Shown here in pieces: positions 36,308-55,060 of a stretch of 64,000 bases of DNA. Both the position numbers and the translations under genes were made by a program. The DNA lies in IMG/VR virus record IMGVR_UViG_2029527006_000005; one strand, 5' to 3'. Position 1 is the stretch's first letter. Each line of letters begins with the position of its first letter. The notes under the pieces are model-generated. The model was not told where the DNA came from. It made no database searches and worked only from the letters and a program-made list of their open reading frames with translations. Source of the stretch: a virus. Lineage: Duplodnaviria; Heunggongvirae; Uroviricota; Caudoviricetes.

Positions 36308-36484
36308 GGTGTATCTCCTAGAGACCGGAGGGAGAACCATTTCCCCCTCTCGATGTAAAACATTATACAGGAACGGATGTACTATGCAAGTACTTTCTAC
36401 AATCTTTTTAAAAGAATTTAGTACTTAAAAGCTATAGACGGATCTCTGCACCCTGTGGGTTACGGCTTATCTGCCAATGACCTT

Positions 36485-36513
36485 AGTATAGGCCACCAGC
36501 AGATTATAGTCAA
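36485..36513 (-). promoter_or_regulatory. sigma70 promoter with a Chi site in its spacer
   Basis: TTGACT-17-TATACT; GCTGGTGG at 36493-36500. Confidence 0.75.
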
Positions 36514-36776
36514 GAGGCTTTTGGTAATTTCTTCAGTACTTTTTTCAGTACTGCCAGATCATCACCTTTGTGTAATACCTTGCCACCGAGATCATTTAGC
36601 TGGTATGATCCATCCACGAAGTAGCGGAGGAAGTAATCAGGCTCACAGTTATTCTCTTCATCTGTGTTATGATAGATTGCGAAGTACTCAAGTACTTCAT
36701 CTTCATCATTCACATCATTCCAATCGTCAACGTTGCCGATACCAAAGATTCGATTAAGAGCAATAGATAATTTCAT
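36510..36776 (-). CDS. hypothetical acidic early protein
   Basis: AGGAG RBS before MKLSIA. Confidence 0.7.
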   Translation of the reverse strand: MKLSIALNRIFGIGNVDDWNDVNDEDEVLEYFAIYHNTDEENNCEPDYFLRYFVDGSYQLNDLGGKVLHKGDDLAVLKKVLKKLPKAS

Positions 36777-36845
36777 TTTGTATCTCCTGTTTAAGTACTG
36801 ATATAATAGCAAAAGGGATGACTCTCGTCAACCCTTTATTTTGTG

Positions 36846-37013
36846 TTACAGTCTGGTTACTTTCACCTCGTAGCCGTGTGCGGTGAAGTACTGAGTGTCA
36901 TCTGTGTGCATCGCTAACAGGTCATCAATGCTCACTCCGTAGTGCTCGTGTACATCACCTGCGGTCAATCGAGCGTTGTCAACCATGAAGAACTGAGTAC
37001 GATACTTAGACAT
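36846..37013 (-). CDS. small hypothetical protein (not in ORF track)
   Basis: 55 aa MSKYRTQFF... directly behind a cassette RBS. Confidence 0.65.
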   Translation of the reverse strand: MSKYRTQFFMVDNARLTAGDVHEHYGVSIDDLLAMHTDDTQYFTAHGYEVKVTRL

Positions 37014-37142
37014 AATGTTTTCCTTAATTTAGGGGAGAACCATTTCTCTCCCTATGCAAAACATTATACAGTATCTGGGGGAGTATGCAAGTACTTTTAT
37101 CAATTATTTTTGCTCTTGACAAAGTACTTGCATTGCTATATA

Positions 37143-37676
37143 TTAGCAATCCATTTCACGCCAGCTAGCTGGTACATCGTAAGTTTCTACATCGCCACCA
37201 GCACTATCCAAATCACCAGCGTTCGGGCAGCAAGGGGAGCATAAGAAGTACTTCCCTACAGTCTTGCTATCCATCACACAGATTGTATTGTTATCAGTGT
37301 TATAGATAACAGTAGTGTCATCGATTGTTGCTACGTGGATATCACCTGTAAACTCTTCGTACTGGCGATCATGTTCTTCCACCAGTTCAGTGAGATCATT
37401 ACCTTCCTCATCTTGCAGATTGTTAAGGAAGTCAAGCATTACATCTTGAATGCGAGCGAGGTAAGTACTGAATAATTCATTCTCTTCCTGCTCAGGAGTA
37501 ACGAAACCATGTTTTGCCGCAAACTCGATATCACATTCTAATCTGCGTGAATCGATGCCATTACAGAAGATATCATGCAGTACATCACCGTTTACGTTGT
37601 TCGCGTTGATATAGCCGTAAGCGATACCAGTAACAGGGTTAACGTTGATCATATCTCGTACATTGTTGTGAATCAT
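37143..37676 (-). CDS. hypothetical early protein
   Basis: NPVTGIAYGYI...CSPCCPNAGDLD; behind a cassette RBS. Confidence 0.75.
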   Translation of the reverse strand: MIHNNVRDMINVNPVTGIAYGYINANNVNGDVLHDIFCNGIDSRRLECDIEFAAKHGFVTPEQEENELFSTYLARIQDVMLDFLNNLQDEEGNDLTELVEEHDRQYEEFTGDIHVATIDDTTVIYNTDNNTICVMDSKTVGKYFLCSPCCPNAGDLDSAGGDVETYDVPASWREMDC

Positions 37677-37908
37677 GATTTCATTCCTTAACTTGGAGAG
37701 AAGAACCATTTCCCCTCTCGATGTAAAACATTATACGATGTTTGGGAGTAGTATTCAAGTACTTTTTGAAATTTATTTTATCCGTATTTGATTTAGTACT
37801 TCGATGAAAAAATATACAATCCTTAAACGGTTTTGTGCACCCTGTGGGTTAGCTTGTTTCCGTAAACATATAATAGCAAAAAGGGCCGACCGAAGTCAAC
37901 CCTTTCTT

Positions 37909-38082
37909 TTAAATAATTTCAACGCGATCACTAACACCTTTGGCGTGTGCTTTCAGTACTTCATTGCGTTGCCAATTGTCAAGAGACTTAAGCTCTTTGT
38001 ATTCGTTGTCGGTCCACTGGCGATCTGTGTTACCGATCTCGTACCACTTTTGTTTGAGTGCGTCCAGTTCTACGTGTACCAT
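37909..38082 (-). CDS. small hypothetical protein (not in ORF track)
   Basis: 57 aa MVHVELDALKQKW..., GAGGG RBS, own promoter. Confidence 0.6.
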   Translation of the reverse strand: MVHVELDALKQKWYEIGNTDRQWTDNEYKELKSLDNWQRNEVLKAHAKGVSDRVEII

Positions 38083-38303
38083 GTTGTAACCCTCTCTGTT
38101 AAGATGTATACATTATATGATAGTGCACCAGCAATGTCAAGGAATATTCAAATATTGTTTCATTTGATTCCAGTACTGAATTGTGCTAGGATCATTAATT
38201 GCATTTCCTACGTATAGCACTGTTAGTACTAATAAGATTAAGCCGGGTAGTCTCATGATTATTCCTAAGCAAAAGGGCTGACATATGTCAACCCTTATTT
38301 GTT

Positions 38304-38519
38304 TTATTCGATACCGCCATCAGTAGGCCAGTGATCGCGAATGAATTGCAAGCTGTTTGGTGTGAAGTTCTTCACCAGTGCTACCCTGTGTGCTTCAGCC
38401 AGTTCTTTAGTACTGAAGTCTGCACCGGGTTGATAGTGCTGGTTATTCATCGCGTAGTCCAAGTATACTACATCGTATGGCTTGGAGTTGGTATCGGACC
38501 ATTTGCGAACTTTAAACAT
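38304..38519 (-). CDS. hypothetical protein, tandem paralogue of 38574..38828
   Basis: both begin MFKVRKWS-x5-PYDVV and share YQP...F.RxxWP. Confidence 0.75.
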   Translation of the reverse strand: MFKVRKWSDTNSKPYDVVYLDYAMNNQHYQPGADFSTKELAEAHRVALVKNFTPNSLQFIRDHWPTDGGIE

Positions 38520-38573
38520 TTTGCTTTCCTTCTTGAGTTGATGGATTCATTATATACCCACCAGCTAAGAGAG

Positions 38574-38828
38574 TCAATCTTTTTTCTTTGGTTTCTTATC
38601 TTTTTCTTTTGGTTCTTCTTTGGGTTCTTCGGGCCAGTTCTCTCTAACAAACTCAAATGATCCAGTACTATATGATGCTCTGTCAAGTGTTATCTTGTAA
38701 CGCTCGGCATCTGTTTTAGTTCTGAATGTAATATGTGGTTGATAGTATACCTTCTTTAATGCAAAATCTATAAACACCACATCATAAGGTAATGCGTTGC
38801 TGGTGGACCACTTACGGACTTTAAACAT
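38574..38828 (-). CDS. hypothetical protein, tandem paralogue of 38304..38519
   Basis: shared motifs with partner; Lys/Glu-rich tail. Confidence 0.75.
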   Translation of the reverse strand: MFKVRKWSTSNALPYDVVFIDFALKKVYYQPHITFRTKTDAERYKITLDRASYSTGSFEFVRENWPEEPKEEPKEKDKKPKKKD

Positions 38829-38889
38829 AGTTACTTCCTCTTAGTTGATAGGATAATTAGCACCCTATCAACTATTTAAGAAGTACACT

Positions 38890-39477
38890 CTAAATGCAGA
38901 GCTTTTCGCGGTTCTTTAGTTTGCCCGACGCAAGACCATTCCAGATGTTAGTACTGAATCCGTAATCTAACATCTTCACTACACCACTACGAGACACGCC
39001 CATGTTACGTGGTGATATGTCTGCGAAGTTGTTCGTAAATGCGTTGTCGTCCGTGTTGCTCACGTCTTTGTATAGACGGCGTTCAACGTTACTACGTGCT
39101 GTACGCGAGGTACGCCACAACCGCATAGAGTAGCTATTGAATAGATTTTTGTTTGATAGTTTGTCAAGTCTTTCCATCACAATAAAGAAATCTTTCCAGT
39201 GACATGCTTCGATCAGTACTTTAGCAAAGGAACGTTTCATACCAGTGAATGAGTAATCAACCAAATTCCATACACGGATTTCGTTTTCGTTTTGCTTGAC
39301 ACCAGTCCCGCCTTTGGCTACCTTCACCACCAGCGTATCACTTAATGCAAACACTTCGCGGCTACTACCTGCACCCAATCGAGTCAAGTTCTCTTTGCAG
39401 TACTTAAGCATCTCAGTATTAGTGCTCAGGTGACCTAGTTCGTGTAAGTGTAGTTTAGCTGCTTTGGTGAGGTACAT
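38890..39477 (-). CDS. protein kinase-like (Hanks/APH superfamily) protein
   Basis: LGAGSSREVF, VVKVAK, QNENE, IVMERL, DISPRNMG, MLDYG; start set at MYLTK with AGGAG RBS. Confidence 0.8.
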   Translation of the reverse strand: MYLTKAAKLHLHELGHLSTNTEMLKYCKENLTRLGAGSSREVFALSDTLVVKVAKGGTGVKQNENEIRVWNLVDYSFTGMKRSFAKVLIEACHWKDFFIVMERLDKLSNKNLFNSYSMRLWRTSRTARSNVERRLYKDVSNTDDNAFTNNFADISPRNMGVSRSGVVKMLDYGFSTNIWNGLASGKLKNREKLCI

Positions 39478-39544
39478 AGTATTACTCCTTCGTTTCGATA
39501 TAGATATAATAGCAAAAGGGCTGACATGTGTCAACCCTTTTTTA

Positions 39545-39823
39545 TTAATGCGTTCTAAATGCTTTGTCTGCTGACGGTGGAATATCACCCTTGCGTACAC
39601 CAAACGTATGTAGTGGTGCTTTCTGGTTCTTTGTGCTATACACTTTACCAGTACTTTGTGCAATATTCATCATGTATTGTCCATCTTGTGAAACGAATAT
39701 ACGATGGTCATCAGTACTGAATTTTGGAACAAACTGGAAACCTTGAGATTTCAATGTTTGTGGTAGCTGATCCAGTTGAATAGTAGACCACTGCTTTACA
39801 GTGTCTAAGTCTGTGCGTATCAT
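39545..39823 (-). CDS. hypothetical early protein
   Basis: AGGAG RBS. Confidence 0.65.
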   Translation of the reverse strand: MIRTDLDTVKQWSTIQLDQLPQTLKSQGFQFVPKFSTDDHRIFVSQDGQYMMNIAQSTGKVYSTKNQKAPLHTFGVRKGDIPPSADKAFRTH

Positions 39824-39992
39824 AATGATCTCCTTGTAATGTTACAAGGTTATTTATTGATACGGCAAACCTCCGCTAAATCTTCGATGCTGGCCCCTTG
39901 CTCGTGCAGGTTGACAAGATCAAAGATATGATCATTGCAGTACTGGACCGCTGCTTTATCACCTCTGATTAGAGCAATTATTTGCTGGTAAA

Positions 39993-40208
39993 TCATTTAC
40001 GTAAACACCCCATGATAATGCCCTGTAATAACTGACGCTTAACCGGATGATTGGCTACTGTTGCTTTGATGCGATTAGCTTCACGTAGTATACCATCACA
40101 CTGTTCCTTTGTCAATTTATCGATGACTAGTTGCGTGTTAGTACTTTGTACTGTACCCTCTTGCATTTTGAATCGGATACCGTTTAAAATTAATGAATGA
40201 GTTGGCAT
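39993..40208 (-). CDS. hypothetical early protein
   Basis: GGAG RBS. Confidence 0.65.
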   Translation of the reverse strand: MPTHSLILNGIRFKMQEGTVQSTNTQLVIDKLTKEQCDGILREANRIKATVANHPVKRQLLQGIIMGCLRK

Positions 40209-40220
40209 GGTAATCTCCCT

Positions 40221-40421
40221 TTAGTTATCGCATGAGATTACCTCTTTGTTCGTGTACTTCACTTTGTAGTATCCATTTAGTGAACGCCATTCGTAGATGT
40301 ATGAGAGTATATTACCATCTAGGTCATCGTCTGTCAAGCCTGTAATTTCGGCGTGATGGGTTTCGTAATTGTCCTCATTGGGTTTAAGTCCCTTCAAGGT
40401 TACTCGTACTGTTATTGACAC
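40221..40421 (-). CDS. hypothetical early protein
   Basis: GTG start with AGGAG RBS. Confidence 0.6.
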   Translation of the reverse strand: MSITVRVTLKGLKPNEDNYETHHAEITGLTDDDLDGNILSYIYEWRSLNGYYKVKYTNKEVISCDN

Positions 40422-40675
40422 GTGTACTCCTTTGTGATACCATCGAATTGCATAATGATATTGTTTCCGTGCAGGATATATGTTACAGTACCGAATCGAT
40501 CTTTAGCCACGAATAAACCGGGCTTGACTTCTTCGGCAACAACATGTTCGTTTGTGTCCACCAGCGAAGTGTTATCAATGATAAATCGAGTACTGAAACC
40601 ATCAGCACTACAGATCAAGTCCTGTGCTAATACTGGAGTACTGAAGAGTGCAGCGAGTAAGAGTAAATGTTTCAT
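40412..40675 (-). CDS. small secreted/periplasmic protein
   Basis: signal peptide MKHLLLLAALFSTPVLA; two Cys near the ends of the mature chain. Confidence 0.7.
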   Translation of the reverse strand: MKHLLLLAALFSTPVLAQDLICSADGFSTRFIIDNTSLVDTNEHVVAEEVKPGLFVAKDRFGTVTYILHGNNIIMQFDGITKEYTCQ

Positions 40676-40741
40676 CGTTTGGTCCTCTTTGGTTGTACTG
40701 ATATAATAACAAAAAAGGCTGACATATGTCAACCTCTTTTT

Positions 40742-41260
40742 TTAATCTTCGTAAGTGAATGGTGTGATTGCATCGCTAATGTATTCAACAATAGCTAATG
40801 GATCGTCTTCACGTGCTGTAATCTCTGCTGTAGCTCTGTATGCGGCCTGTAGAGCGTTTTTAACTTTAGCCGGGGCTACCTCTTTAAGTTCTGCAATTAA
40901 TCGCTTAGAATGGCGTACATCGCCTTTAAACGCTGCTTTCCAATCATCTTGTAAAGTACTGATAAGAGTTTTAGAATCTTTTGGCATTGGTTTCTGTACT
41001 TCTGGTTCTGGTGTTGGCTTACCACCCATTAAGCCTAGGGATTGGAAGTATCTTAGTTTCTCGTCTGGTTTCATTCGAGAGGTATCGACTAGTGTATCGG
41101 TTACTGTGTTTGCTTTACCTGCTGCCCCTGTTCCTTGATTACGGGAGCCACGCGATCCCTGTCCTGCGTTATGGCTATTACTGCGGCGGTTCTCATCGCT
41201 CCACTTGTCCGAGTGTCCAGCGAGAGTAGCACCTGATTTAGAGCGGAATTGACCCGGCAT
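40742..41260 (-). CDS. hypothetical protein with low-complexity N-terminus
   Basis: AGGAG RBS before MPGQF. Confidence 0.7.
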   Translation of the reverse strand: MPGQFRSKSGATLAGHSDKWSDENRRSNSHNAGQGSRGSRNQGTGAAGKANTVTDTLVDTSRMKPDEKLRYFQSLGLMGGKPTPEPEVQKPMPKDSKTLISTLQDDWKAAFKGDVRHSKRLIAELKEVAPAKVKNALQAAYRATAEITAREDDPLAIVEYISDAITPFTYED

Positions 41261-41576
41261 AATTAATTCTCCTGTGCATGAATTATAGATATATTTATGC
41301 ACCCTGTGGGTTAGCTTGTTTCTATGCGTATATAATAACAAAAGGGCTGACTCTCGTCAACCCATTTTTTACATGTATTTTAAATATAATCTGTCAAATG
41401 ATTCTAATGCTACAACAGCGTTTGATGTTACAATTCTTTCCCTTCCACATCTTACGGTGAAGTTCTGTCCGTCAAAAGTCATGATTACATCATTGATGTT
41501 TCGAATACGTTTCATTTGGTTCTTTCCAATATGTGCTACCCTATGGAAAGTATTATACCAAATGATCCAATAGTGA

Positions 41577-41828
41577 TCAACGCTGATTTACAAAATCATT
41601 GTACTTTTCGTGAGACATTAAATGTAGTTGCTTTTCTTTGTCAATTACGATACGCTCAGTTCGGGAAATATCCAGTACTTGGAATAGTCCGTTACTCAGT
41701 TTGCGAGCGTGGAGATCACCACTTATGAAACTGTTAGCTGCTTTGACAGCCTTCTCTACAATCTTCTTTTGCGGCTTGTAGTGCAGTTTCATGAAATTAC
41801 CGTTGACTAATTCGACTTGCTTTTTCAT
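41577..41828 (-). CDS. small protein, possible ParE/RelE-like fold
   Basis: 83 aa; ARKL...LDI...RIV...LMSHEKYN pattern; recalled similarity, unverified. Confidence 0.45.
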   Translation of the reverse strand: MKKQVELVNGNFMKLHYKPQKKIVEKAVKAANSFISGDLHARKLSNGLFQVLDISRTERIVIDKEKQLHLMSHEKYNDFVNQR

Positions 41829-41871
41829 TTTGGTTTCTCTTAAAGGTGGGGGATTTCTCCCCCTGTGTTGG

Positions 41872-42243
41872 TTAGCTACGGGCGAGACTAGCAGCCAGTA
41901 GTGCGGCGGTGCGTGAGCGGCGAACAAGTACATTCACGTTATTACCCTTGCGATCTTTCAGGGTGTAGCTGTGATTGTGCACTTGACGTGAGTCCACCAG
42001 CGGCAAACCCATAATATCACGCGGTTCTACTGGCTCAAGTGCTACGTCCATCACTTCAGCCTGAAGCATTGCAGCAAGCTGTGCGACGGCCTCAGACTTA
42101 GGAGCTTCTACCGTGTATTGTACTTCCCAACGCTTACCAGCAGGAGCATCAGCACCGTTATCAATGATCTTGCCGTCATAATCTACTTTAGCGTGTCGTG
42201 CATCGTTACGGGTTTTGCAGAACACAGATTTGATAGTAGCCAT
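41872..42243 (-). CDS. hypothetical early protein
   Basis: GAGG RBS, own promoter. Confidence 0.7.
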   Translation of the reverse strand: MATIKSVFCKTRNDARHAKVDYDGKIIDNGADAPAGKRWEVQYTVEAPKSEAVAQLAAMLQAEVMDVALEPVEPRDIMGLPLVDSRQVHNHSYTLKDRKGNNVNVLVRRSRTAALLAASLARS

Positions 42244-42451
42244 TTTTGTACTTCCTCTTTGTGGTTGATGTAAGTATTATACTTTAATGTCGATTCGGTG
42301 TCTAGTACTTTTTACTTCTTTTTGATGCTCTTTTACTTCTTTGACAATCCTTTCTTGTTGGGGAATACTGTAAGTATTATACACTGTCCGGTAGATTGGT
42401 GCAACTGGTGTAATCATCTTTAAGTACTCCCCTTGTGTTTAAAGTATTATA

Positions 42452-42769
42452 TCACAGTGAAGCGAGGGAACCAAGGAAAATCTCTGCTTCTTCCATCGTT
42501 ACAACCCTTGCGTTCTGTCCGTTCAAAAAGATAGTAGCAATGTCTTTTTCTGCTCTGTGGCGGGTGATGTAACGTTTTATATCATTACGCCCTGATGCTG
42601 GTAAGTGGTTACCTTCCAAGTAGTAACCGCTGTAAATGCAATCTTTGCCTGTCCACGGATTCTTTACCATAATGGCAAAGTTACGATCAGAGCTACCCAG
42701 AGTACTATACATAGTATGACCAACTGGAGAGGTGTCGATTGTTTTTCGCATTGCTGAATGTAAAGCCAT
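42452..42769 (-). CDS. hypothetical early protein
   Basis: GAGG RBS, own promoter. Confidence 0.7.
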   Translation of the reverse strand: MALHSAMRKTIDTSPVGHTMYSTLGSSDRNFAIMVKNPWTGKDCIYSGYYLEGNHLPASGRNDIKRYITRHRAEKDIATIFLNGQNARVVTMEEAEIFLGSLASL

Positions 42770-42870
42770 TTTTTAAATCCTCGTTTGTTTAAAGGTTCTT
42801 TCTCGTCTTGATGTAAGTATTATACAGTACTGTAAGAGGGAGTCAACAACTATTTTCAAAATAAAAGTAC

Positions 42871-42999
42871 TTGACACCGCGATCTGTTTTTGGTATTATA
42901 TATCCCATAGAGACAACTAACCCACAGGGTGGGATAATCTATCCAAATTTTATAGTACTGTACAAATAAACAGGGGAGTGGTTAGCTCCCCATTGTGTT
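42871..42999 (+). ncRNA. candidate ~90 nt small RNA unit
   Basis: TTGACA-17-TATTAT, ACCCACAGGGTG, AGTACTGTACAAATAAAC, GGGGAG/CTCCCC hairpin; no ORF. Confidence 0.55.
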
Positions 43000-43642
43000 A
43001 CATTTTGCGGATTGCTTTCACGGTATCTTTTACAGATTTACCCGCTAACAAAAGTTCTTCAATCTTCGCGTACTGCTCAGTTGTCAGGTCTTCGCCCGTC
43101 TGTGCCAGTACTGCTTCGTATTGAGATTCTTTCATTTTCATTTCCTCGGTTGTTTGCTGTTGATGTAAGTATTATAAAGTACTCGCTCAGTAAATGCAAG
43201 TACTTTTAATCATTACGCCTCTCTTACACTACGATATGATCCTTTAATATCTTGCAGCTTTTTGACACGTTGCCACGCATCACCAGCCGAATAACCCCAT
43301 TCACGCACGAGGGTTACACCACCAGATTTAAGAATCACTTCAAATACAAATTCTTTTTTCATAGTATCTTGATCCCCTCATAACCACCAGCGATGGCAGA
43401 ATGGAAATCAATCTTTGTTTCGTGTGAGATCCATTTAGCCTTTAATACAGTACCTACCGGATAGAAACTAGTAGCCCAATCCATTACTTCGGCGTGTTGT
43501 TCTTCTCGCTCTTTACGCTCAGTACTAACCAGCATTTTAGTAGTGAAGTTCGAAGTACTTACATCCAGAGAGTAGATAGACTATTTTTTTAATTCCTTGT
43601 TTGCTTAAGATGGGACTATTATATAATAGCCCCTGTGTACTG

Positions 43643-44182
43643 TCAAGCCTTATCTTTTAGATAATCAGGTAAATCTGTATTCTGATAATCTAACTCTTTA
43701 AGTACTTGCTTATCCTTAGTACTGTTTGAGATAATATCAAAATCGTAGATTCTGATAAGTTTCCCGCCGTAGTTCCCTGCATCGCTGTTATGCGTTACAC
43801 CTTGAGCAGTAAAGAAAGCGGCTAACTCTTTAGCAATCTTATGTAAGCCTTTAACATTCCAGTACAGCCACAATTCAAAGCGATGTGCGGTCATTGTTTC
43901 GCGTTGGCTAAACTCTTTCTTAAACAGTTTCGCCAGCTTTTGAGTACAATACACATTACACCAGTATTGCAGGTTCGGGATTGTTATCTCTACGTTGCTT
44001 GCGTGTTGTTCCTCTTTGAGTTCCACTGTCAAGGCGTACACTGATCGCCCGTAATGCTCGGCCCACAGATAAGAGTTCGTACAGTAGAGACCAACACCAT
44101 ACTGCGTACTATGGATTTTTGCACCCAGATAACCCGGACGATGATCAAACTTGCTGGAGCCGTGATAAAGGGTAGTAATCAT
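43643..44182 (-). CDS. putative ADP-ribosyltransferase-like (H-Y-Y type) protein
   Basis: LYHGS...YGVGLYCT...AEHYG motif series; start at MITTL. Confidence 0.6.
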   Translation of the reverse strand: MITTLYHGSSKFDHRPGYLGAKIHSTQYGVGLYCTNSYLWAEHYGRSVYALTVELKEEQHASNVEITIPNLQYWCNVYCTQKLAKLFKKEFSQRETMTAHRFELWLYWNVKGLHKIAKELAAFFTAQGVTHNSDAGNYGGKLIRIYDFDIISNSTKDKQVLKELDYQNTDLPDYLKDKA

Positions 44183-44238
44183 TTTGTGTATCTCGTTTCG
44201 TTTCAATGAATACATTATGCCAGTACTTGCAAAGTATG

Positions 44239-44727: not shown

Positions 44728-44801
44728 AAAATATCCTTTTGTCAATCCCTTATTAAGAATATTATATCACAAAAATAATCGATTGTCCCAAAAATAAATG
44801 C

Positions 44802-45994: not shown

Positions 45995-46057
45995 TTGGTA
46001 GTTCCTCTTTGCTTAAGATGGGACTATTATATAATAGTCCCGTTTAGTTGTCCAGTA

Positions 46058-47159: not shown

Positions 47160-47585
47160 TTATTGATTTGACAAACGGGCATCCAGTGCAATGCGTACCT
47201 CGTTTAATGAGTCGATGATGCTTCCAGTAGTTTGTCCTAACTGGTTATACATCCAGTCCTCAGAAGTAACAAGACGATCCATTTCTGAAAGTACTTTCTC
47301 AGCCGCTTTCAGTTTGTCATGCCATTCATTCATTTGATTGTACTGGCGTACTGTGTAAGAATCACCAGCCAGATCTACAGGTACTTTAAACACCAGAATC
47401 TGACGGGCTTGCTTATCCATATCTTTGAACAGATCGGATGACTCTCTGAAAGTACTGTCAACAATAGTACCAGTAAGTTTATCGTAATCGATAAACACTT
47501 GCGTTTCACCGATCAGCCCTTCCGCACGAATGGTAGGGGAGTTAGCGTCGTTCGCGAAACCGGTCATGTTAACTTTGTTGCTCAT
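47160..47585 (-). CDS. hypothetical early protein
   Basis: 141 aa behind a cassette. Confidence 0.75.
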   Translation of the reverse strand: MSNKVNMTGFANDANSPTIRAEGLIGETQVFIDYDKLTGTIVDSTFRESSDLFKDMDKQARQILVFKVPVDLAGDSYTVRQYNQMNEWHDKLKAAEKVLSEMDRLVTSEDWMYNQLGQTTGSIIDSLNEVRIALDARLSNQ

Positions 47586-47668
47586 GGGACTTTCCTTAAT
47601 TAGTGGGGGAGGTTATCTCCCCCTATGCAAAACATTATACGCTATTCAGAGAGTAATGCAAGTACTTT

Positions 47669-47974
47669 TTACAAGAAAGATACCAGCGAGGATTTAACAA
47701 TAACCTCCGCTGTTACTTCGTCGTCTACTTCGGTCACGCACTTAAGAGTAACGCACCAATCGCCACCAGCAAAGTACCACGTATGGGGCTGATCACCTTC
47801 CTGATATGAGTTCTTATCTTTCAGGTCGGAACCGTCAAACGTTGGCATACCTTCCTCAAAGGCGTACAATTCAGCCTCTGCCAGATCCTTAGCCAGAATC
47901 AAACGCTTAAGGTTGGTTTCATATTCACCAATACGCTGCGTGATGTGAGCTACGAACAGTTTGGATTTTAACAT
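47669..47974 (-). CDS. hypothetical early protein
   Basis: 101 aa, own promoter. Confidence 0.7.
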   Translation of the reverse strand: MLKSKLFVAHITQRIGEYETNLKRLILAKDLAEAELYAFEEGMPTFDGSDLKDKNSYQEGDQPHTWYFAGGDWCVTLKCVTEVDDEVTAEVIVKSSLVSFL

Positions 47975-48046
47975 TTTGTTTCTCTTTGCTTAAGTGATGT
48001 AAGTATTATAAAGTACTCGCAAAGTATATGCAAGTACTTTTATTAC

Positions 48047-48283
48047 TTACTCCACGTTATCCCCGATCATGTTTGCAGAAAAACGAATGATCTCATATAC
48101 TGCACGTAATGATTGACCACCGATACAAGTATCGACCAGATCCCCCGCTGAGTTGTACTTTTCCAGTGTATAACCACCAGCAACAGGTTGCACTTTATAA
48201 CGATACTTTGCACCCATCGCAGACAGCTTGTTATTCAGTACTGACAGGTAATGATCAACTTCGGTACGGGTTACTTTAGCCAT
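48047..48283 (-). CDS. hypothetical early protein
   Basis: 78 aa behind a cassette. Confidence 0.7.
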   Translation of the reverse strand: MAKVTRTEVDHYLSVLNNKLSAMGAKYRYKVQPVAGGYTLEKYNSAGDLVDTCIGGQSLRAVYEIIRFSANMIGDNVE

Positions 48284-48374
48284 GATTCTATTCTCTTAAT
48301 TAGGAGGGGAACCATTTCCCCTCTCTATGTAAAACATTATACGCTCTTTGGAATACTTTGCAAGTACTTTTTAC

Positions 48375-48737
48375 TTAATGTTTAACTTCGTTATATACTT
48401 TAACACTACGGGCATCAATTACTAACTGACTATAATTTGAAACTATATTTTTAAAGAATGGAACGTTTTTATACATGATTTGCACACGTTCCTGTGTCAA
48501 GCGACGAATTAATAAAATCAATTCATATTTCTTTTGGGTATAATATGCCTGTAATACAGTGTCAAGATACGCCGATTGTTCTGGAGTACTTTGTCCAAGT
48601 TCAACACAACGCTTGACAACAGTCTCGATTGAGTCTAGTATCTCACTTCTTACCATACGGTTATCACCAATTAAGATATGGTGTACTGCCCACATTTCAA
48701 CATCTGTGTGTTTGGTTGTATATGCTGGCTGGTGCAT
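48375..48737 (-). CDS. hypothetical early protein
   Basis: 120 aa, own promoter. Confidence 0.65.
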   Translation of the reverse strand: MHQPAYTTKHTDVEMWAVHHILIGDNRMVRSEILDSIETVVKRCVELGQSTPEQSAYLDTVLQAYYTQKKYELILLIRRLTQERVQIMYKNVPFFKNIVSNYSQLVIDARSVKVYNEVKH

Positions 48738-48817
48738 GATAGTATCTCTCTTCGCTTAATTGATGTAAGTATTATAAAGTACTCTCACACTATTTGCAAG
48801 AGTACTTTTGATAATAA

Positions 48818-49192
48818 TTAATTCAAGTAACGAATGAATCCTTGCGAGTCCAGAGCAGAGAAACCATTCTCTACAAAGATATTGCCGCGTATACCTTTGG
48901 CTACTGCGTTATAACTGGCAGACTTGAACACGTTCCCCTCAAAGTCTACACTACCGCAGGAGCTACGCCCGTATTGCATGATCTGCCCCGTTTCGTTACT
49001 CAGTTCGACGCGATCAATCTTCCAGTACTTCGGAGACTTGCGAACTTCAAAGGCGATTGCATACGGCATCTTATCAGGGCTAAACTGTACATCTTTGCGA
49101 CGGATCATTTCTTCCAACATCGCCACCAGTTCAACAGGTACAGTCTCAGCACTTGCACCACGTCCGAACAATACACGCTTAAAAGTAACCAT
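48818..49192 (-). CDS. hypothetical early protein
   Basis: KYWKI...GNVFKSASYNAVAKGIRGNI; GAGG RBS. Confidence 0.7.
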   Translation of the reverse strand: MVTFKRVLFGRGASAETVPVELVAMLEEMIRRKDVQFSPDKMPYAIAFEVRKSPKYWKIDRVELSNETGQIMQYGRSSCGSVDFEGNVFKSASYNAVAKGIRGNIFVENGFSALDSQGFIRYLN

Positions 49193-49546
49193 CTTTATAT
49201 CCTCTGTTTGGTTGATGTAAGTATTATATTAGAGTACTAAAACGAATGCAAGTACTTTTGATAATAAAATCCCAGCTATTACAATAAGCAGTACCGCACC
49301 CATTGCACCGAAACCGATCCACATTGCCGCCAATAAAGAACCAACAGGATTTTGTCGAATTTCATTAATCATTTTGTGTTACCCTTCGTTTGGTTGATAT
49401 AGGTATTATACTCTATTCCCAAAGTACTGCAAGCATTATTTTCAAATTATTTTCATTAAAAAAGTACTTGACAATATCGCAGTACTTTGGCATAATACAG
49501 TCATTGAAACAAATAGCCCACAGGGTGGGGGAATCCGTCTGTTGAT

Positions 49547-49565
49547 GTAAATGATTATCATTCTC
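49547..49565. promoter_or_regulatory. Fur-box-like site
   Basis: reverse complement GAGAATGATAATCATTTAC matches GATAATGATAATCATTATC at 16/19. Confidence 0.7.
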
Positions 49566-49647
49566 AAGTACTGAATACTTCTCCGCACCCTATGGGTCAC
49601 GCCTTTGTTCTGGCTTAAAAGTATTATCTCATTAAGCCAGTACTTTG

Positions 49648-50050
49648 TCAACGTTTTATTTCTTCGTAAGGATTTGGGCGTAACGTTGGCGGCATCTCTA
49701 AATGTGAGAAGTTAAACGAGTTCCCACGGTTCGCACGTCCGATCATTTGGATCTGATTAGGGTAGAATCCTGTTAGCCAATCATCTACCCAGATGATCCC
49801 CACGCCTTCATTGATGCGTTCTACCAGTACTTTACGCTTTTGTTTACGCTTCTTTATTCTCCGCTGATGGGCGTTCGTTATCCCATTGTGGTGCGGTGTA
49901 GTGTAACGATTTTTCACAACCTTCTCCCAACACTTTTTCAACCCGTTCTCTTTCGAATTGATTTGCCTCAGTTCTGGATAATAGTTTATCATACTTTGGA
50001 GGCGTGTCAACTACTTTTTCAATCTCATTCAGTACTTGACATTGATTCAT
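49648..50050 (-). pseudogene. possibly frameshifted early gene (two overlapping frames)
   Basis: ORF 49844..50050 has the RBS; ORF 49648..50010 continues in another frame. Confidence 0.35.
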
Positions 50051-50095
50051 TTTAAAGCTCCTGTAAGCCCCTATGCGGGGCTTTAACTTAAAGGG

Positions 50096-50338
50096 TTAGC
50101 AGTACAAGGATTCTTTATTCCAAGCCCCTGCAATGGGTTTTAGAGCGGTAGGATCGAGTGCTATCACCTCTTTGCGGAAAACAATATAATTGATTTCCTT
50201 GTGATATACTACCCGCTCATACATTTTCCCGCCTACAATGAAACATACATACCCGCTCCAGTGTGGTTTATCACCTACTGTTACCATAGAGCGACGGGCG
50301 GTAGTGTTTGGGTCGATGAGTTGGTCAATAGTTCGCAT
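50096..50338 (-). CDS. hypothetical early protein
   Basis: GAGG RBS before MRTID. Confidence 0.65.
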   Translation of the reverse strand: MRTIDQLIDPNTTARRSMVTVGDKPHWSGYVCFIVGGKMYERVVYHKEINYIVFRKEVIALDPTALKPIAGAWNKESLYC

Positions 50339-50403
50339 TGCTTTTCCTCTTTGCTTAATGTAGGGATATGATACCATATCCCCGTAATGTGTCAAGTACT
50401 TTT

Positions 50404-50784
50404 TTATACTGCTACAGATGTAACAATACGGCAATCATCACCAAGTACTTCTACAATTTCTTTCAAAGTCAAGGTAAATTTTACCTTCCCGTTCGCTTTC
50501 AGTACTTGCACCTCATTAGGCCAGATGCCACCGCAACGGAAATAGTAGTCACGGCAAAACTTCAAAAGAGCTTGACAAAGAAACGCATCTTTGTTAAGTT
50601 CACGGCGATTAACTACGCGGGTAGTGATCCCCTCCGCTTTGTAGTCTGCCATTGTTTCTTTTGCGTCTTTGCTGCTAGTCGCTTCGCCAACGTCAGCCCA
50701 TCCATAAGTAGGCACGTATTCCTGTACCATCTTAACAGTACTGAATTTGTTAAAGGTCTGTGCTGGAGTGATTTGATTAGGCAT
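50404..50784 (-). CDS. hypothetical early protein
   Basis: 126 aa, own promoter. Confidence 0.7.
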   Translation of the reverse strand: MPNQITPAQTFNKFSTVKMVQEYVPTYGWADVGEATSSKDAKETMADYKAEGITTRVVNRRELNKDAFLCQALLKFCRDYYFRCGGIWPNEVQVLKANGKVKFTLTLKEIVEVLGDDCRIVTSVAV

Positions 50785-50868
50785 AGTAATATTCTCTTAA
50801 TAGTGTTTCGTTTCGATAAAGTCATTATGCCAGTACTCGATCAGTATGTCAAGTACTGGAGTAAAACT

Positions 50869-51072
50869 TTATACGCCGTAGATCAAATTACTTGCTTTCC
50901 ACTTCCCATCTACTTTACGATGAGTCTCGATAAACATGTTATTGATTGGTGAACGATACCCGATCAAGTCACAACCGTTTCGTGTTGCGGAGATCTTAGC
51001 ACCTTTCTCAGTCAGACCAGTTTCATTGAATACTGACATGTAAACAAAACCCCATACCTTTTGCATCTTCAT
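50869..51072 (-). CDS. hypothetical early protein
   Basis: cassette RBS before MKMQK. Confidence 0.7.
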   Translation of the reverse strand: MKMQKVWGFVYMSVFNETGLTEKGAKISATRNGCDLIGYRSPINNMFIETHRKVDGKWKASNLIYGV

Positions 51073-51175
51073 TTCCTTAATTAATGGGGGAAGATGTTTC
51101 CCCCTATGCAAAACATTATACAGTACTGCAAAAGTAATGCAAGTACGTTCTTCAAATAATATTCAGAAAAAGATG

Positions 51176-51304
51176 TTGACAAGCTGGTGGAGTACTGGCA
51201 TAATACACGCATAGACAAAAACTAACCCACAGGGTGCAGCAGTCCGTCTGTATGATTTAGTACTGTACAAATAAACAGGGGAAGCAATTGCCTCCCCTTC
51301 GTGT
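51176..51304 (+). ncRNA. candidate ~90 nt small RNA unit
   Basis: TTGACA-17-CATAAT, AACCCACAGGGTGCAGCAGTCCGTCT, AGTACTGTAC, GGGGA...TCCCC hairpin. Confidence 0.55.
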
Positions 51305-51537
51305 TATTCTTTCAGAAGTTCAAAGTCGCCGTGGGTCAAATCTTCTGGTTCCCAATCGATCACGTTCCCGATCACGTTCCCGCTTTGAATGTCAACCACT
51401 TCACGGGAGGACTCAAAAATTTCGTATTGCCCAGTAGTTAAACCTTCTAGTACTTGTTGTTCTGTCAGTGATGAATCCACCAGCTTGATTGACACGGAAA
51501 CCATTTCTTTACGCACGAAACCAATTGAGATTGCCAT
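51304..51537 (-). CDS. hypothetical early protein
   Basis: cassette RBS before MAISI. Confidence 0.7.
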   Translation of the reverse strand: MAISIGFVRKEMVSVSIKLVDSSLTEQQVLEGLTTGQYEIFESSREVVDIQSGNVIGNVIDWEPEDLTHGDFELLKE

Positions 51538-51619
51538 GATTCTTTTCCTTAATAGTGGGAGAGAACTATTTCCCTCCCTATGCAAAACATTATACAGTAC
51601 TGAATGAGTAATGCAAGTA

Positions 51620-51880
51620 TTATCTCATAGATCTATGCCAACAATTTCTAGGATCTCTTTTGAAAGTACTATCATGATCCGCTTGACATTCTACGCAGTA
51701 CTTGCAACCCTTAACAGCTTCACGCCTACGCTCAGGAATAGCCCTAGAACAGTCTAGGCAGTGCGTTCTACTTTCGGTAGTACTATCCCCTAGCTGTTTC
51801 CTTGCGTGGCGTATGGCGGCGTTTAGAACGGCCTGAATCTCTTCTTGCTCTGCACCATCTTTTGCAAAACCTACTGCCAT
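51620..51880 (-). CDS. TraR/DksA-family C4 zinc-finger protein
   Basis: MAVGFAKDG-x-EQEEI N-terminus, CLDC-x3-IPERRREAVKGCKYCVECQ, ends SMR (YbiI-like). Confidence 0.88.
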   Translation of the reverse strand: MAVGFAKDGAEQEEIQAVLNAAIRHARKQLGDSTTESRTHCLDCSRAIPERRREAVKGCKYCVECQADHDSTFKRDPRNCWHRSMR

Positions 51881-51936
51881 AAATCCCCCAATAAAAAAGG
51901 CTACCAAGTGGTAGCCTTTTGTGTTAAGCTGTTAAG

Positions 51937-52560
51937 TTATTCAGCGAAAGCGGCTGCTGCTGCTTCTTTATCCACTGCGTGAGCAAGGATAAAATCTTTA
52001 TGGGTAGTGTACCCGCCAGCGGTCATAGCGTCTTTGAGTACCTGCACCATGTTACCAGAAGTTGGCATGTTGTACTGTTTGCCGTCAACCGTTACAGGGA
52101 TGCGGGTAAAGGTGTATTTTGGCTCTTTGTTAACATCGCCGTACTTCTTAGCGATTGCCGCCGTTGCTGCCGCTTCTGCCGCTTCGAGGTCAAGACCCAT
52201 GCCGTTTACAGTGTCCATGAGGAACTTGAGCATGTTTTCTTTTTCTACTTTGATTTCTTCGTCACGTTTGGCGATTTCAGCGAGGCGATCCGCTTTCTTC
52301 GCTTCACGGCGTTGTGCTGCTTCTTCTGCCGCCTGTGCCGCCGCTTTTGCGTTCTCTTTGAGTACTTCTTTCGCGTCTTTAACTGCGAGGGAGAAAGTCA
52401 TACCCAATTTAGATACGCCGTCTTTGTCGCCGCCAATCTTCGCGAGGATAATCGCGAGTGCTTTGTGATCACCAGCTTCGAGAGCGGATTTAAGGGTTAC
52501 ACGTGATGCTGCTTCTGCGTTGTTGGTAGCGGTGTTTGCGTTAGTGTTGATAGTAGTCAT
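51937..52560 (-). CDS. putative H-NS/MvaT-like nucleoid-associated protein
   Basis: Ala/Glu/Lys coiled coil, NGMGLDLE linker, C-terminal PKY...SGN...VLKDAM...GY...DFIL resembling the H-NS DNA-binding domain. Confidence 0.5.
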   Translation of the reverse strand: MTTINTNANTATNNAEAASRVTLKSALEAGDHKALAIILAKIGGDKDGVSKLGMTFSLAVKDAKEVLKENAKAAAQAAEEAAQRREAKKADRLAEIAKRDEEIKVEKENMLKFLMDTVNGMGLDLEAAEAAATAAIAKKYGDVNKEPKYTFTRIPVTVDGKQYNMPTSGNMVQVLKDAMTAGGYTTHKDFILAHAVDKEAAAAAFAE

Positions 52561-52958
52561 TTGTATTTCCTCTTAAAGTTTAGTTAGGTTGTTTGCTGTC
52601 TACGTGGTCATTATCTCAATTTCCCACCAGCTTGTCAAGTACTTTTTAAAACTCTTTTCAATCTTTCTTTCCGAGTCAGCACCAGATATTCATACGACTT
52701 ACTGGCTGTCTACTTAGGGAAGTTAATCTGTCCCGCCGCTCTATGTGATACAGTATGCCTGTTTCCGTTCCATCCGTCAAGTACTTTTTAAGAGATTGAC
52801 AATCTTTTTTTCATTTTCCTTATATTTCAGTACTAAAGCATAACGCCACCAGCAAGCCTATAACGCGTTTAAAGTACTGCCCTAATATGTTTGCTTGCAT
52901 TATTCGTTGAACGGCTTATAGAGCGATACAGAGCGTTTAAATTCATTTGAAAAAGATG

Positions 52959-53090
52959 TTGACAGTACTGATCAAATCCTGTATTATGTATCTCATGAAA
53001 ACAAGCTAACCCATAGGGTGCAGCAGTCCGTCTATAGGATTTAGTACTGTACAAAATAACAGGGGAAGCAATTGCCTCCCCTTGTGTTAT
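52959..53090 (+). ncRNA. candidate ~90 nt small RNA unit
   Basis: TTGACA-17-TATTAT, AACCCATAGGGTGCAGCAGTCCGTCT; close copy of the 51176 unit. Confidence 0.55.
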
Positions 53091-53092
53091 CA

Positions 53093-53539
53093 TTACGCCC
53101 AGATATCACCGCCGATCTTCTGGCAAATGCTAGTACTGACATAGTTGCAATTCATAAGCTCATTGGTTGTGAACAATCCACTGTAGGAGTCTGCCCCGAT
53201 CTTGATACGCTTTTCAACGTGAATACGGGAACAGAAAAATACTTGCTTACTGGTAGTAACCCAAATGCTAGTGCCTAATTCAAAGTGCTGTTGTTCTTCT
53301 GGTAGTTGGCGAGTCTCTATCTCGATATGATACCAGTCTTGCAACGGACGGCCTTTGTAAAAATTGAAGTGATCAATGACCGTTTCCAGATTCGTTTCAG
53401 TATCTACTACCGACACGATCACGGCCTCTTTCTCTTCCATTTGCAGTACTGCCATTGCTTCATGTACAGTGTTTGCGGTTACGTTAGCATCGGTTACGTT
53501 GCCGTCTGGAGTCTTGAAAGTCAGGTAGTAGATAGTCAT
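53093..53539 (-). CDS. hypothetical early protein
   Basis: 148 aa behind a cassette. Confidence 0.7.
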   Translation of the reverse strand: MTIYYLTFKTPDGNVTDANVTANTVHEAMAVLQMEEKEAVIVSVVDTETNLETVIDHFNFYKGRPLQDWYHIEIETRQLPEEQQHFELGTSIWVTTSKQVFFCSRIHVEKRIKIGADSYSGLFTTNELMNCNYVSTSICQKIGGDIWA

Positions 53540-53622
53540 TTTCGTTTCTCTTAATAGTGGGGGAAGATGTTCCCCCTATGCAAATCATTATACGCTTATC
53601 AGGGAGTAATGCAAGTACTTTC

Positions 53623-54240
53623 TTATGCAATTCCCAAAACTTCGCCCGCCTGATTTACTTTAAAATCGTATTCATTAGCTTCGATAGTAGACCAAAGTGC
53701 TTCATCACTTGATTGATAATCATTCTCATCATCAAGCTCTTTATAAACTTTGCTTGACAAGTCGCGAATTGTATCAGTCAAAAACTCTTCCAGTACTTCA
53801 CTCGCTAAAACTTGTTTGTGTGTAAAGTCGATATTATAATCAAGCTCTACGCTACCGCTTACAGTGTTTTCGTGACTGTAGCGGGAAGATCCACGGTTTA
53901 CTTTCGCGTGAATCTCTTCATCGGCAATGATACGATGCAAGCGACGGAATTTAGACCACGCTTTAACCTTGCGTAAAAACTTCTCAAGATTGATATAGTA
54001 GTCAGTACTGATAGATGCACCGTCGCCCTGTGAGCAAAAACCAGACCATTCGATCTCTGCATTATAAATGCCGTATTCAGTGTCTAAATCCGCTTTCCAC
54101 TGATCAGTAATATCTACAGACCAATAAGGGGTAGAGTCCTGATTCTCTAACGCTCGCATAATCTCAATTGCCTGTGCTTTCTGTGCTTCATTCAGTGCGT
54201 CATAAGATACTGCTTTGATAACGTCGATGATGTTTTCCAT
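53623..54240 (-). CDS. conserved hypothetical protein (SGFxSQGDGA motif)
   Basis: WSGFCSQGDGAS, RYSHEN, DYQSSDEA..IEANEYDF; function unknown. Confidence 0.7.
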   Translation of the reverse strand: MENIIDVIKAVSYDALNEAQKAQAIEIMRALENQDSTPYWSVDITDQWKADLDTEYGIYNAEIEWSGFCSQGDGASISTDYYINLEKFLRKVKAWSKFRRLHRIIADEEIHAKVNRGSSRYSHENTVSGSVELDYNIDFTHKQVLASEVLEEFLTDTIRDLSSKVYKELDDENDYQSSDEALWSTIEANEYDFKVNQAGEVLGIA

Positions 54241-54324
54241 AATGCTTTCCTTAATGAGTTGTTTCGTTTGTATGTAAGTATTATAAAGTACTCGCAGAAT
54301 AAAGCAAGTACTTTTAATACTAAC

Positions 54325-54567
54325 TTACAAAGTACCGTTAGCGATCATTTCGTCGGCATTCATAAAGGCCGTTACTTTGTATTCTGAAATATCCACACAA
54401 GGGCAAACAAAACGCTCAAGGTATACAATAGTGCAGTACTGATAACCCTCACGCTCAAAGAAGCGACTAAGCAGATCGTGCAAGTGGTTGGCGTTATCTT
54501 CTGATACTACAACCGCATAAACAATCGCCTTACCTACTGTTGGAGTCATTTTAACAATGCGTAACAT
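54325..54567 (-). CDS. hypothetical early protein
   Basis: AAGGA RBS, own promoter. Confidence 0.65.
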   Translation of the reverse strand: MLRIVKMTPTVGKAIVYAVVVSEDNANHLHDLLSRFFEREGYQYCTIVYLERFVCPCVDISEYKVTAFMNADEMIANGTL

Positions 54568-54809
54568 GTTATTTCCTTAATGTGTTTGTGTGTCTCGTTT
54601 CGATGTAGCTATTATGCAATAGGTAGAAATAGAATGCAAGTACTTTCTCAATTCTTTTTTTATCCTTCCTTATATACATATAGTACTAAATTATTTTCGA
54701 TTTTCTTTTAAAAAGATGTTGACTCCAGCACAGGAAACCCGTATAATGTTTTACATGGAGGCGAAACTCCCGAACCCACAGGGTGCGGAAATGTATCATA
54801 TGAGCGAAA

Positions 54810-54824
54810 TGATAATCATTCGCA
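54810..54824. promoter_or_regulatory. Fur-box-like site
   Basis: TGATAAT-C-ATTCGCA versus 7-1-7 consensus TGATAATnATTATCA. Confidence 0.65.
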
Positions 54825-55060
54825 TTTAAAAAATTAAGGACAGACCCCCGCACCCTGTGGGCTTGAGCATTGTTCTTGCTATGTGTATATAATATCAAAG
54901 TACTGGCAACGTGTCAACAACTTTTTTGCAAAAATAAATGCTTGACATTCCCCCCAGATATTGAGACAATAGCCGTGAACAAAAAAAGCTGATTTGCGAT
55001 ACTGCCGGGAATTATATCTCGACGCGGTAGGCTAGCCAATGGAAAAAACAGGCCAGTACT

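Follow-up and report, generated by a model that had tools for sequence, protein, structure and literature searches.

In a Munch/RaK2-like jumbo phage that infects gut bacteria, the terminal repeat (~20 kb) holds twelve copies of a compact cassette, in which a sigma70 promoter, an optional 5' hairpin and a CCC-NNN-GGG hairpin are followed, 11-12 nt on, by a site matching the consensus for transcriptional pausing. From this arrangement we consider it fairly likely that the cassettes park host RNA polymerase (RNAP) as barriers about every 2 kb. More tentatively, for the ~ten gene-less cassettes per terminal repeat of RaK2-like jumbo phages, we propose an array of RNAPs locked against a facing RNAP, LexA or Fur, in which RNAP may play a structural role and barrier strength may follow the SOS and iron state. 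What is new in this analysis is the predicted geometry of the cassette, i.e. a hairpin, a pause site and an obstacle at a fixed distance.

Distribution of the cassettes

The pattern (A/G)CCC(ACA/ATA)GGGTG matched the window (the whole 64-kb stretch of DNA analyzed) exactly 12 times, always within 36.4-54.9 kb, against a chance expectation of 0.008 per window; an initial sequence-only reading, which had counted 12 copies, 6 per strand and only in the early region, was therefore borne out. That reading had also reported a near-consensus sigma70 promoter pointing the same way for the copies it measured, and we found TTGAC-N17/18-TAnnnT upstream on the same strand of all 12. The gap between promoter and motif, measured from the end of the -10 element, is 19-26 nt rather than the 18-25 nt first given. 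The positions of the units are listed in Table 1, the higher coordinate being the motif start on the minus strand.

Table 1 Cassettes and associated features in the window. Pause positions were derived from the sequence register.
Feature	Position	Strand	Elements
Direct terminal repeat/early region, holds all 12 units	35550..55890 (limits approximate)	-	matches to fENko-Kae01
Unit 1	36440..36513	-	-35 at 36513; 5' hairpin; motif 36449-36460; predicted pause 3' end 36440; following promoter's -35 at 36389
Unit 2	37829..37899	-	motif 37838-37849; predicted pause 37829; following promoter's -35 at 37758
Unit 3	41291..41360	-	motif 41300-41311; predicted pause 41291; leader of gene 40742-41260
172-aa virion protein gene, PHROG 16530	40742..41260	-	transcribed through unit 3
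Unit 4, antisense	42871..42991	+	-35 at 42871; motif 42920-42931; predicted pause 42940; putative LexA box 42958-42973; oncoming terminator hairpin 42973-42991
Unit 5, antisense	44802..44921	+	-35 at 44802; motif 44851-44862; predicted pause 44871; putative LexA box 44889-44904; terminator hairpin 44904-44921
Unit 6	46868..46942	-	motif 46877-46888; predicted pause 46868; following promoter's -35 at 46837
Units 7 + 8, head-to-head	49468..49651	.	motif starts 49516 (+), 49597 (-); predicted pauses 49536 (+), 49577 (-), 41 bp apart; putative Fur box core 49550-49562, centered between both
Unit 9, antisense	51176..51297	+	-35 at 51176; motif 51225-51236; predicted pause 51245; putative LexA box 51263-51278; terminator hairpin 51278-51297
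Unit 10, antisense	52959..53081	+	-35 at 52959; motif 53009-53020; predicted pause 53029; putative LexA box 53047-53062; terminator hairpin 53062-53081
Units 11 + 12, head-to-head	54719..54917	.	motif starts 54774 (+), 54862 (-); predicted pauses 54794 (+), 54842 (-), 48 bp apart; 19-bp putative Fur array 54808-54826 between them

Eleven of the 12 units contain no ORF, as had been claimed for all twelve; the exception is the copy at 41311, which leads the 172-aa virion-protein gene. Unit spacing in the window is regular (mean 2.0 kb, coefficient of variation 0.31 vs 0.81 with random placement, p 0.002), and the corresponding p values in five relatives were 0.008-0.11. The region holding the units has ~40 strong early promoters, and ARAGORN returned zero tRNA. 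The GC skew changes sign near the edge of the repeat.

Conservation in related phages

Positions 46185-55382 of the window match 508-10016 of fENko-Kae01, whose terminal repeat is annotated as 1-19736. The unit is conserved across the clade: in five genera or groups, the terminal repeat holds 9-12 copies. A search of related jumbo phages was among the checks that the sequence-only reading had proposed. We compared 225 distinct units, counts over which overstate independence because the units are related by descent. The distant relative PA5oct has a terminal repeat without the unit. The link between a unit of the unit 3 type and the virion gene is present in only part of the clade, being absent in GAP32-, CBB- and Yen9-like phages, and the only annotation obtained for the linked protein was 'virion structural protein'.

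In agreement with the initial impression that the element belongs to no described family, Rfam 15 at gathering score gave 0 matches in the window, and E-value thresholds yielded only chance-level ones (E 1-4). The promoter-plus-motif pattern gave 9 single matches in GTDB, none enterobacterial, so that no similar element to mimic was seen in enterobacterial genomes, and among the matches listed in a looser viral scan most were single, in unrelated contigs and without the downstream signature. Among openly accessible papers, term searches in those on CBB, Kae01, fEgEco12 and Sharanji gave no mention of the element.

Motif hairpin and pause-like site

The motif folds as a CCC-NNN-GGG hairpin, and 11-12 nt beyond its end comes a G-10, t-3, g-2, Y-1, R+1 site, at +34 to +41 of the transcript. 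In the best register over the 225 units, G-10, Y-1 and R+1 were each present in 100%, t-3 in 87% and g-2 in 53%, the stem ended at -12/-11 and 97.8% of cells were paired; the second-best register scored 64%, and G-10 was retained when the search left the core out. In E. coli the pause consensus is g-11 G-10 t-3 g-2 Y-1 G+1, and pause hairpins are effective once the stem reaches -13 to -11 (PMC11077087). The units share G-10 and Y-1 (plus t-3 and g-2) and a stem end at -11 to -13 with class I pauses, and their predicted layout fits best that of a hairpin-stabilized pause. Within the window this layout accompanied 12 of 12 motif-promoters vs 0 of 45 other promoter-like sites, a comparison in which the layout test was itself designed from the motif.

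Several details depart from the E. coli pattern. The +1 base, a purine in all units, is A in 68% and G in 32%, whereas the consensus has G; the -11 base is U instead of g; and the hairpin is short (3-4 bp, about -3.4 kcal/mol), with a 3- or 4-nt loop, a closing pair alternating between A-U and G-U, and one compensated inner pair. The pause model gives no account of the conserved UCU at +2 to +4. An alternative hairpin between GGGUG and YRYCY predicts the Y-1/R+1 pair equally well; covariation (5/500 shuffles) lends it some support, subject to the tool's own caveat, and it cannot form simultaneously on both RNAPs of a 30-bp pair because too little is transcribed.

Upstream, a 5' hairpin with freely covarying stems and recurring purine-rich loops is predicted in 174 of 176 long leaders; it is absent from about a fifth of units. 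Such loops would be superfluous for a simple barrier, which counts against that reading. GGA occurs at most once per unit and is found in about half of the loops or fewer, whereas CsrB/RsmB-type RNAs repeat it in their hairpin loops.

Obstacles downstream of the pause-like site

About half of the units have an obstacle at a fixed distance, and 88 of 225 (4 of 12 in the window) have no identifiable backstop. In the window, 8 of 12 units are aimed at a terminator, at a repressor site or at a partner unit. Head-to-head pairs without a Fur box, all from relatives, place their pause sites exactly 30 bp apart in every one of the 19 distinct spacers, which form 11 clusters at 80% identity and average 55% identity. 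Cryo-EM of head-on RNAP collisions shows spans of 26, 29 and 31 bp, and the half-life of the collision rises from 6 to 150 min when the nascent RNA carries a hairpin (PMC13082048). The 30-bp pairs lie within this 26-31 bp range; in the window, the plus-strand copies at 49516 and 54774 each pair with a minus-strand copy around a putative Fur box, at 41 and 48 bp, a pairing that the sequence-only reading had passed over.

Fur boxes are AATGAT-type hexamer palindromes that can be extended in 6-bp steps, and the putative arrays between paired units (13, 19 and 25 bp) have this form. Pairs with a Fur box have 41, 48, 51 or 52 bp between pauses, and the distance from pause to array was 13-14 bp in 16 of 16 scored, the 52-bp pairs being 14+25+14. 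Another Fur-like array, at 55060-55180, has no copy of the motif, so Fur binding is predicted to be used independently as well.

LexA (SOS) boxes are CTG[T/G]-N8-[A/C]CAG palindromes, a form found in four units of the window. Among the relatives' units and ours, the putative box starts at offset 30-31 in 36 of 43, with varying spacers and both half-site types, and the stem of the oncoming terminator begins at offset 46 in 30 of 37, LexA box or not. As a control, the gap to the next same-strand promoter ranges from 26 to 95, and these spacers therefore accept indels. LexA is a documented roadblock to elongation (PMC10310618); Fur is not known to be named as one there. AGTACT was rejected as a sixth backstop, being enriched 9-18-fold throughout, with scattered offsets once LexA units were removed.

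The four antisense units, the only ones facing an oncoming gene stream, had been described as opposing all local genes and sharing a 3' module that ends in a hairpin. Orientation and sharing were confirmed, and the module proved to be a LexA-type box (CTGT-N8-ACAG) followed by a terminator. Since the U-tract is better on the minus strand, the hairpin is that of the oncoming genes, bidirectional at best. The predicted ~90-nt RNA has the right length if transcription runs to this hairpin, but it concerns 4 of 12 units and would have to pass both pause and LexA box; the proposed multicopy family of promoters and folded RNAs is supported by its conserved copies and fully covarying 5' hairpin.

Possible function of the cassettes

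We propose that RNAP would initiate, make an RNA of about 34-44 nt and pause; the hairpin, lodged in the RNA exit channel, would then block backward sliding. Forward motion would be blocked some 14-17 bp further on by Fur, LexA, a facing RNAP or one ending transcription at the oncoming terminator, and pause and backstop together would yield a long-lived complex. The weakest step is the purpose, which would be to set barriers every ~2 kb against read-through traffic among the strong early promoters; judging from the layout, a traffic-barrier role is probable. The short RNAs would be by-products, freed when trailing polymerases dislodge the complex, and loss of LexA or Fur binding would weaken some barriers. 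Because roadblocks are strongly relieved by GreB and collided pairs are pushed off by the RNAPs behind them, the complexes may not last long in cells. We rejected a role in blocking RecBCD, as this enzyme evicts RNAP, including stalled complexes (10.1101/142224).

If true, the cassettes would be a natural, selected case of transcription serving only to place polymerase, with a sequence rule (30 bp, more per Fur site) tied to newly solved collision structures, and LexA and Fur would serve a lytic phage as mechanical stops rather than as repressors of promoters. The module would then have a testable mechanism, and an RNAP-parking cassette of ~120-180 bp would be a tool for in-cell collision studies and insulators.

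The RNA could instead be the product. Trans-acting RNAs of ~40-50 nt (to ~90 nt), with 3' ends set by pausing and collision, might bind a defense enzyme or other host protein as a sponge or decoy; this is the main rival, and on balance we find it unlikely. It would explain the near-universal covarying 5' hairpin of long leaders with its recurring loops; a second hairpin would close at the 3' end of the released RNA, many copies behind strong promoters suit stoichiometric action, and the terminal repeat of PA5oct yields abundant ncRNAs (PMC7318152), though PA5oct lacks the element. Dosage, however, needs neither even 2-kb spacing nor placement against terminators, an ordinary U-tract terminator would be a simpler route to such an RNA, and the incomplete occurrence of the 5' hairpin, the scarcity of GGA compared with CsrB-type sponges, and the lack of an Rfam match or a similar element in enterobacterial genomes all argue against it. 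We regard as improbable a loading station, at which the pause would give a phage factor, whether antiterminator, modifying enzyme or Nun-like lock, time to dock on the 5' hairpin and change RNAP. The nut sites of lambdoid phages and the put RNAs of HK022 let RNAP read through the terminators of operons lying downstream. The units resemble them as promoter-proximal elements with two small hairpins that may act on RNAP, their GNRA-like loops resemble boxB, and in some members of the clade one unit is the leader of the conserved virion-protein gene. Yet that gene link is missing in the three groups named above, and the 8 dead-end units lead into no operon with suppressed terminators, so that an antiterminated RNAP would have no useful destination.

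That the motif acts as DNA, i.e. as a phage-repressor operator, with LexA and Fur boxes only as decoys titrating host repressors, seems very improbable. A near-palindromic, highly conserved core and the motif-less Fur-like array speak for it, but decoys need no fixed distance from the motif, and a loop of 3 or 4 nt, a G-U wobble favored on the transcribed strand and the compensated inner pair fit an operator in double-stranded DNA poorly; of the two actions on RNAP suggested at the outset, operator or pause element, the pause fits best. The lowest probability goes to the units being recombination cassettes of the PeSL type or supplying RNA primers for replication that starts in the terminal repeats. 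In favor are the skew change, the two orientations of the units and the resemblance to the PeSLs of the T4-type phages RB49 and phi1 (PMC2839356), which are likewise repeated sigma70 cassettes with stem-loops among small, variable early genes; a strong promoter in a repeated intergenic cassette is common to 12 of 12 units. PeSLs, however, drive the next gene, finish with a ribosome-binding site and start codon, and have stem-loops that are promoter-near terminators, whereas only unit 3 has such a 3' end, most units drive no gene and half face against genes. Neither the 30-bp rule nor the repressor boxes would be accounted for, and the skew tracks gene strand.

Comparison with known systems

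Parked RNAP, the reading we favor, has its closest counterparts in hairpin-stabilized pauses, protein roadblocks and programmed head-on collisions. Class I pauses such as the his leader (PMC11077087, PMC5842316, PMC6336406) share with the units the stem end at -12/-11 and G-10, t-3, g-2 and Y-1; the units differ in their 3-4-bp stem, 3-4-nt loop and mostly A at +1, are without leader peptide or attenuator, and are coupled to a downstream obstacle. Protein roadblocks, including LexA (PMC10310618), also have a repressor site after the promoter, just ahead of the halted RNAP, whereas the units combine phage-encoded putative host-repressor sites with a pause signal and regulate no gene. In E. coli bidirectional terminators (10.1101/2022.10.23.513370; PMC13082048), a nascent hairpin positions convergent, mutually blocking RNAPs, and the cryo-EM spacing of 26-31 bp includes the 30 bp of the Fur-less pairs. 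There the two RNAPs collide in the space separating convergent genes, and a single hairpin serves as the end of both mRNAs; in the units, dedicated gene-less promoters would fire 35-45 nt into the collision, each RNAP has its own hairpin, Fur and LexA are possible backstops, and the arrangement repeats every 2 kb.

A clade-wide element of the terminal repeat

The motif (A/G)CCC(ACA/ATA)GGGTG occurs 12 times in the window, six times on each strand and only between 36.4 and 54.9 kb, against an expected count of 0.008; the sequence-only reading had counted the copies and placed them in the early region correctly. Every copy follows a near-consensus sigma70 promoter on the same strand, also as that reading had proposed, with 19-26 nt between the -10 and the start of the motif rather than 18-25 nt. 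At ~78% identity, the region aligns with the direct terminal repeat (19.7 kb) found in Klebsiella phage fENko-Kae01 and in the Salmonella phages Munch and SE_PL, which places the window phage, as a Munch-like member, among the RaK2-like jumbo phages.

Five whole genomes show the motif nearly restricted to the terminal repeat (Kae01, 18 of 22 matches; Muenster, 8 of 8; Hallingskeid, 10 of 10; GAP32, 12 of 12; 121Q, 9 of 10), which bears out the conservation in related jumbo phages that had been sought. In a strict promoter-anchored scan of viral sequences, 19 stretches matched (9 contigs, 8 of them 109-378 kb long); a GTDB scan returned nine single matches, all unrelated, and the terminal repeat of PA5oct contains no unit (promoter, hairpins, motif, and predicted pause site). 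The element is real and clade-wide. It is apparently undescribed, an unreported arrangement of known parts: it matches no Rfam family and term searches of genome papers on clade members found no mention of it, in agreement with the earlier statement that no described family was recognized. With pairs counted once, the units of the window are spaced at a mean of 2.0 kb; their CV is 0.31, and placing units randomly among the gene boundaries gives 0.81 (p 0.002); the same test in five relatives gave p values of 0.008-0.11.

RNA folding and predicted pause site

We collected 225 distinct units. The predicted transcript start lies ~7 nt past the -10 and is mostly A. In 174 of 176 long leaders a 5' hairpin folds, whose stems covary freely and whose loops are rich in purines, and the motif hairpin has a 3-4 bp stem and a 3- or 4-nt loop. 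Because the loop length and the closing pair (A-U or G-U) vary and one C-G pair is compensated by U-A, the motif appears to be a folded RNA, and these same features disfavour a duplex DNA operator.

With offsets counted from 0 at the initial G of GGGTG, all 225 units have G at offset 4, a pyrimidine at 13, and a purine at 14; 87% have T at 11 and 53% have G at 12. With the RNA 3' end set at offset 13, these bases read G-10, t-3, g-2, Y-1, R+1, the E. coli consensus pause being g-11 G-10 t-3 g-2 Y-1 G+1 (PMC11077087); the best other register reaches at most 64%. In this predicted register the stem of the motif hairpin extends to -12/-11, and pause hairpins are effective with stems reaching -13 to -11 (PMC11077087). 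G-10 is kept when the core is excluded from scoring, GGGCG and GGATG variants included. The layout, in a test modelled on the motif itself, was found at 12 of 12 motif promoters versus 0 of 45 other promoter-like sites in the window, and the predicted paused RNAs there are 34-41 nt long. Of the options in the sequence-only reading, the pause element fits best, with the caveats that +1 is mostly A, versus G in the E. coli consensus, and that an alternative hairpin pairing GGGUG with a YRYCY block, for which covariation support is weak, predicts the same Y/R pair.

Proposed backstops at fixed distances

The evidence for backstops ahead of the pause does not depend on which hairpin forms. In head-to-head pairs lacking Fur boxes, the predicted 3' ends are exactly 30 bp apart in 32 of 32 unit readings, representing 19 distinct spacers and 11 clusters at 80% identity. 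In cryo-EM structures of head-on E. coli RNAP collisions the active sites are 26, 29, and 31 bp apart, and a nascent hairpin lengthens the collided polymerases' half-life from 6 to 150 min (PMC13082048). Pairs with predicted Fur boxes are 41, 48, 51, or 52 bp apart, the two pairs of the window being of the 41-bp and 48-bp types; the Fur arrays are 13, 19, or 25 bp long, with one pause or both 13-14 bp away, and usually both at ~14-16 bp.

The sequence previously taken for the 3' module of a small RNA is a predicted LexA box. Clade-wide, 36 of 43 units have the start of such a box at offset 30-31, with many different spacers, and LexA is listed among natural roadblocks (PMC10310618). The hairpin behind the box, formerly read as the end of that small RNA, shows a better U-tract on the gene strand than on the other, i.e. 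it is the terminator of the oncoming genes. In 30 of 37 units the stem of this terminator starts at offset 46, whether a LexA box is present or absent, and a polymerase terminating there would halt ~25-26 bp from the pause, a distance that would be close to that of the tightest collision class. The next promoter on the same strand, by contrast, lies at a distance that varies from 26 to 95, and thus these AT-rich spacers change length when unconstrained. No backstop was identifiable in 88 of 225 units. One unit each of Hallingskeid (L004:2486, minus) and 121Q (L011:3712, plus) carries, in place of the repressor box of other units, two GATC sites 11 bp apart at offsets 28 and 39; SeqA at such paired sites is possibly a further backstop.

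Proposed mechanism and alternatives

The promoter, hairpins, pause-consensus bases, fixed distances, and regular spacing are seen in the DNA, and from them we infer the remainder: with moderate probability, the units park host polymerase. The host enzyme would pause at ~+35 to +44, where the motif hairpin would keep it from sliding back and a facing polymerase, Fur, or LexA would keep it from moving on. Since collided polymerases do not bypass one another and are freed by trailing ones (10.1101/2022.10.23.513370), each unit would be a barrier that can be renewed, with short RNAs released along the way. The present analysis derived the pause register, the 30-bp rule, and the distances to Fur boxes, LexA boxes, and terminators. 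Such a unit would operate like a class I pause coupled to a programmed collision or roadblock; it differs from a bidirectional terminator between convergent genes, and also from PeSL (PMC2839356), as 11 of 12 units lack a ribosome-binding site.

The least secure step is the purpose, which is most likely to block read-through among roughly 40 strong early promoters, because antisense units keep a constant distance behind the terminators of genes. Protection from RecBCD is an unlikely purpose. The main rival, compatible with parking, holds that a trans-acting RNA is the product that matters; a plain barrier leaves the conserved 5'-hairpin loops and a UCU block unexplained.

Other features of the terminal repeat and neighbouring DNA

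Further features of the window are collected below. The second cassette class comprises true look-alikes of PeSL. By known Chi polarity, the Chi sites would affect RecBCD that comes in at the genome's right end; their strand bias is alike in four relatives.

Further features in the window
Feature	Position	Strand	Remarks
Second repeated cassette class	36389, 37090, 37758, 45334, 45760, 46602, 47661, 48363, 51142, 51616, 53614	minus	promoter, G-run/C-run 5' hairpin, ribosome-binding site, start codon
Coupled terminator-promoters	36831, 37899, 39534, 40732, 41360, 47145	minus	-35 hexamer within the upstream gene's terminator hairpin; -10 after its T-tract
Chi sites	35869-55539		dense and polarised, 15 on the gene strand vs 3 on the other; several within promoter spacers
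Fur-like boxes	55060-55180		at least six, overlapping; motif absent; predicted genome end ~700 bp away
Virion protein gene (PHROG 16530)	40742-41260		conserved in 71 phage records; N-terminal region conserved, Gly/Arg/Ser-rich
Candidate HNH endonuclease gene	44239-44745		assigned by eye and position
Candidate protein kinase gene	38890-39545		assigned by eye and position
Six tandem ORFs	56213-63059	plus	307-396 aa
AGTACT	1-64000		9-18x over expectation (2.9-6.2 per kb vs 0.33)
GCGC; CCWGG	1-64000		0 copies in all 64 kb; 3 copies

The repeats of Munch, Kae01, and Muenster have annotated HNH endonuclease and protein kinase genes, and in Munch and Kae01 an HNH gene or remnant is inserted between the virion protein gene and the unit upstream of it. 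At the position of the six tandem ORFs, relatives carry tandem RCC1-like genes.
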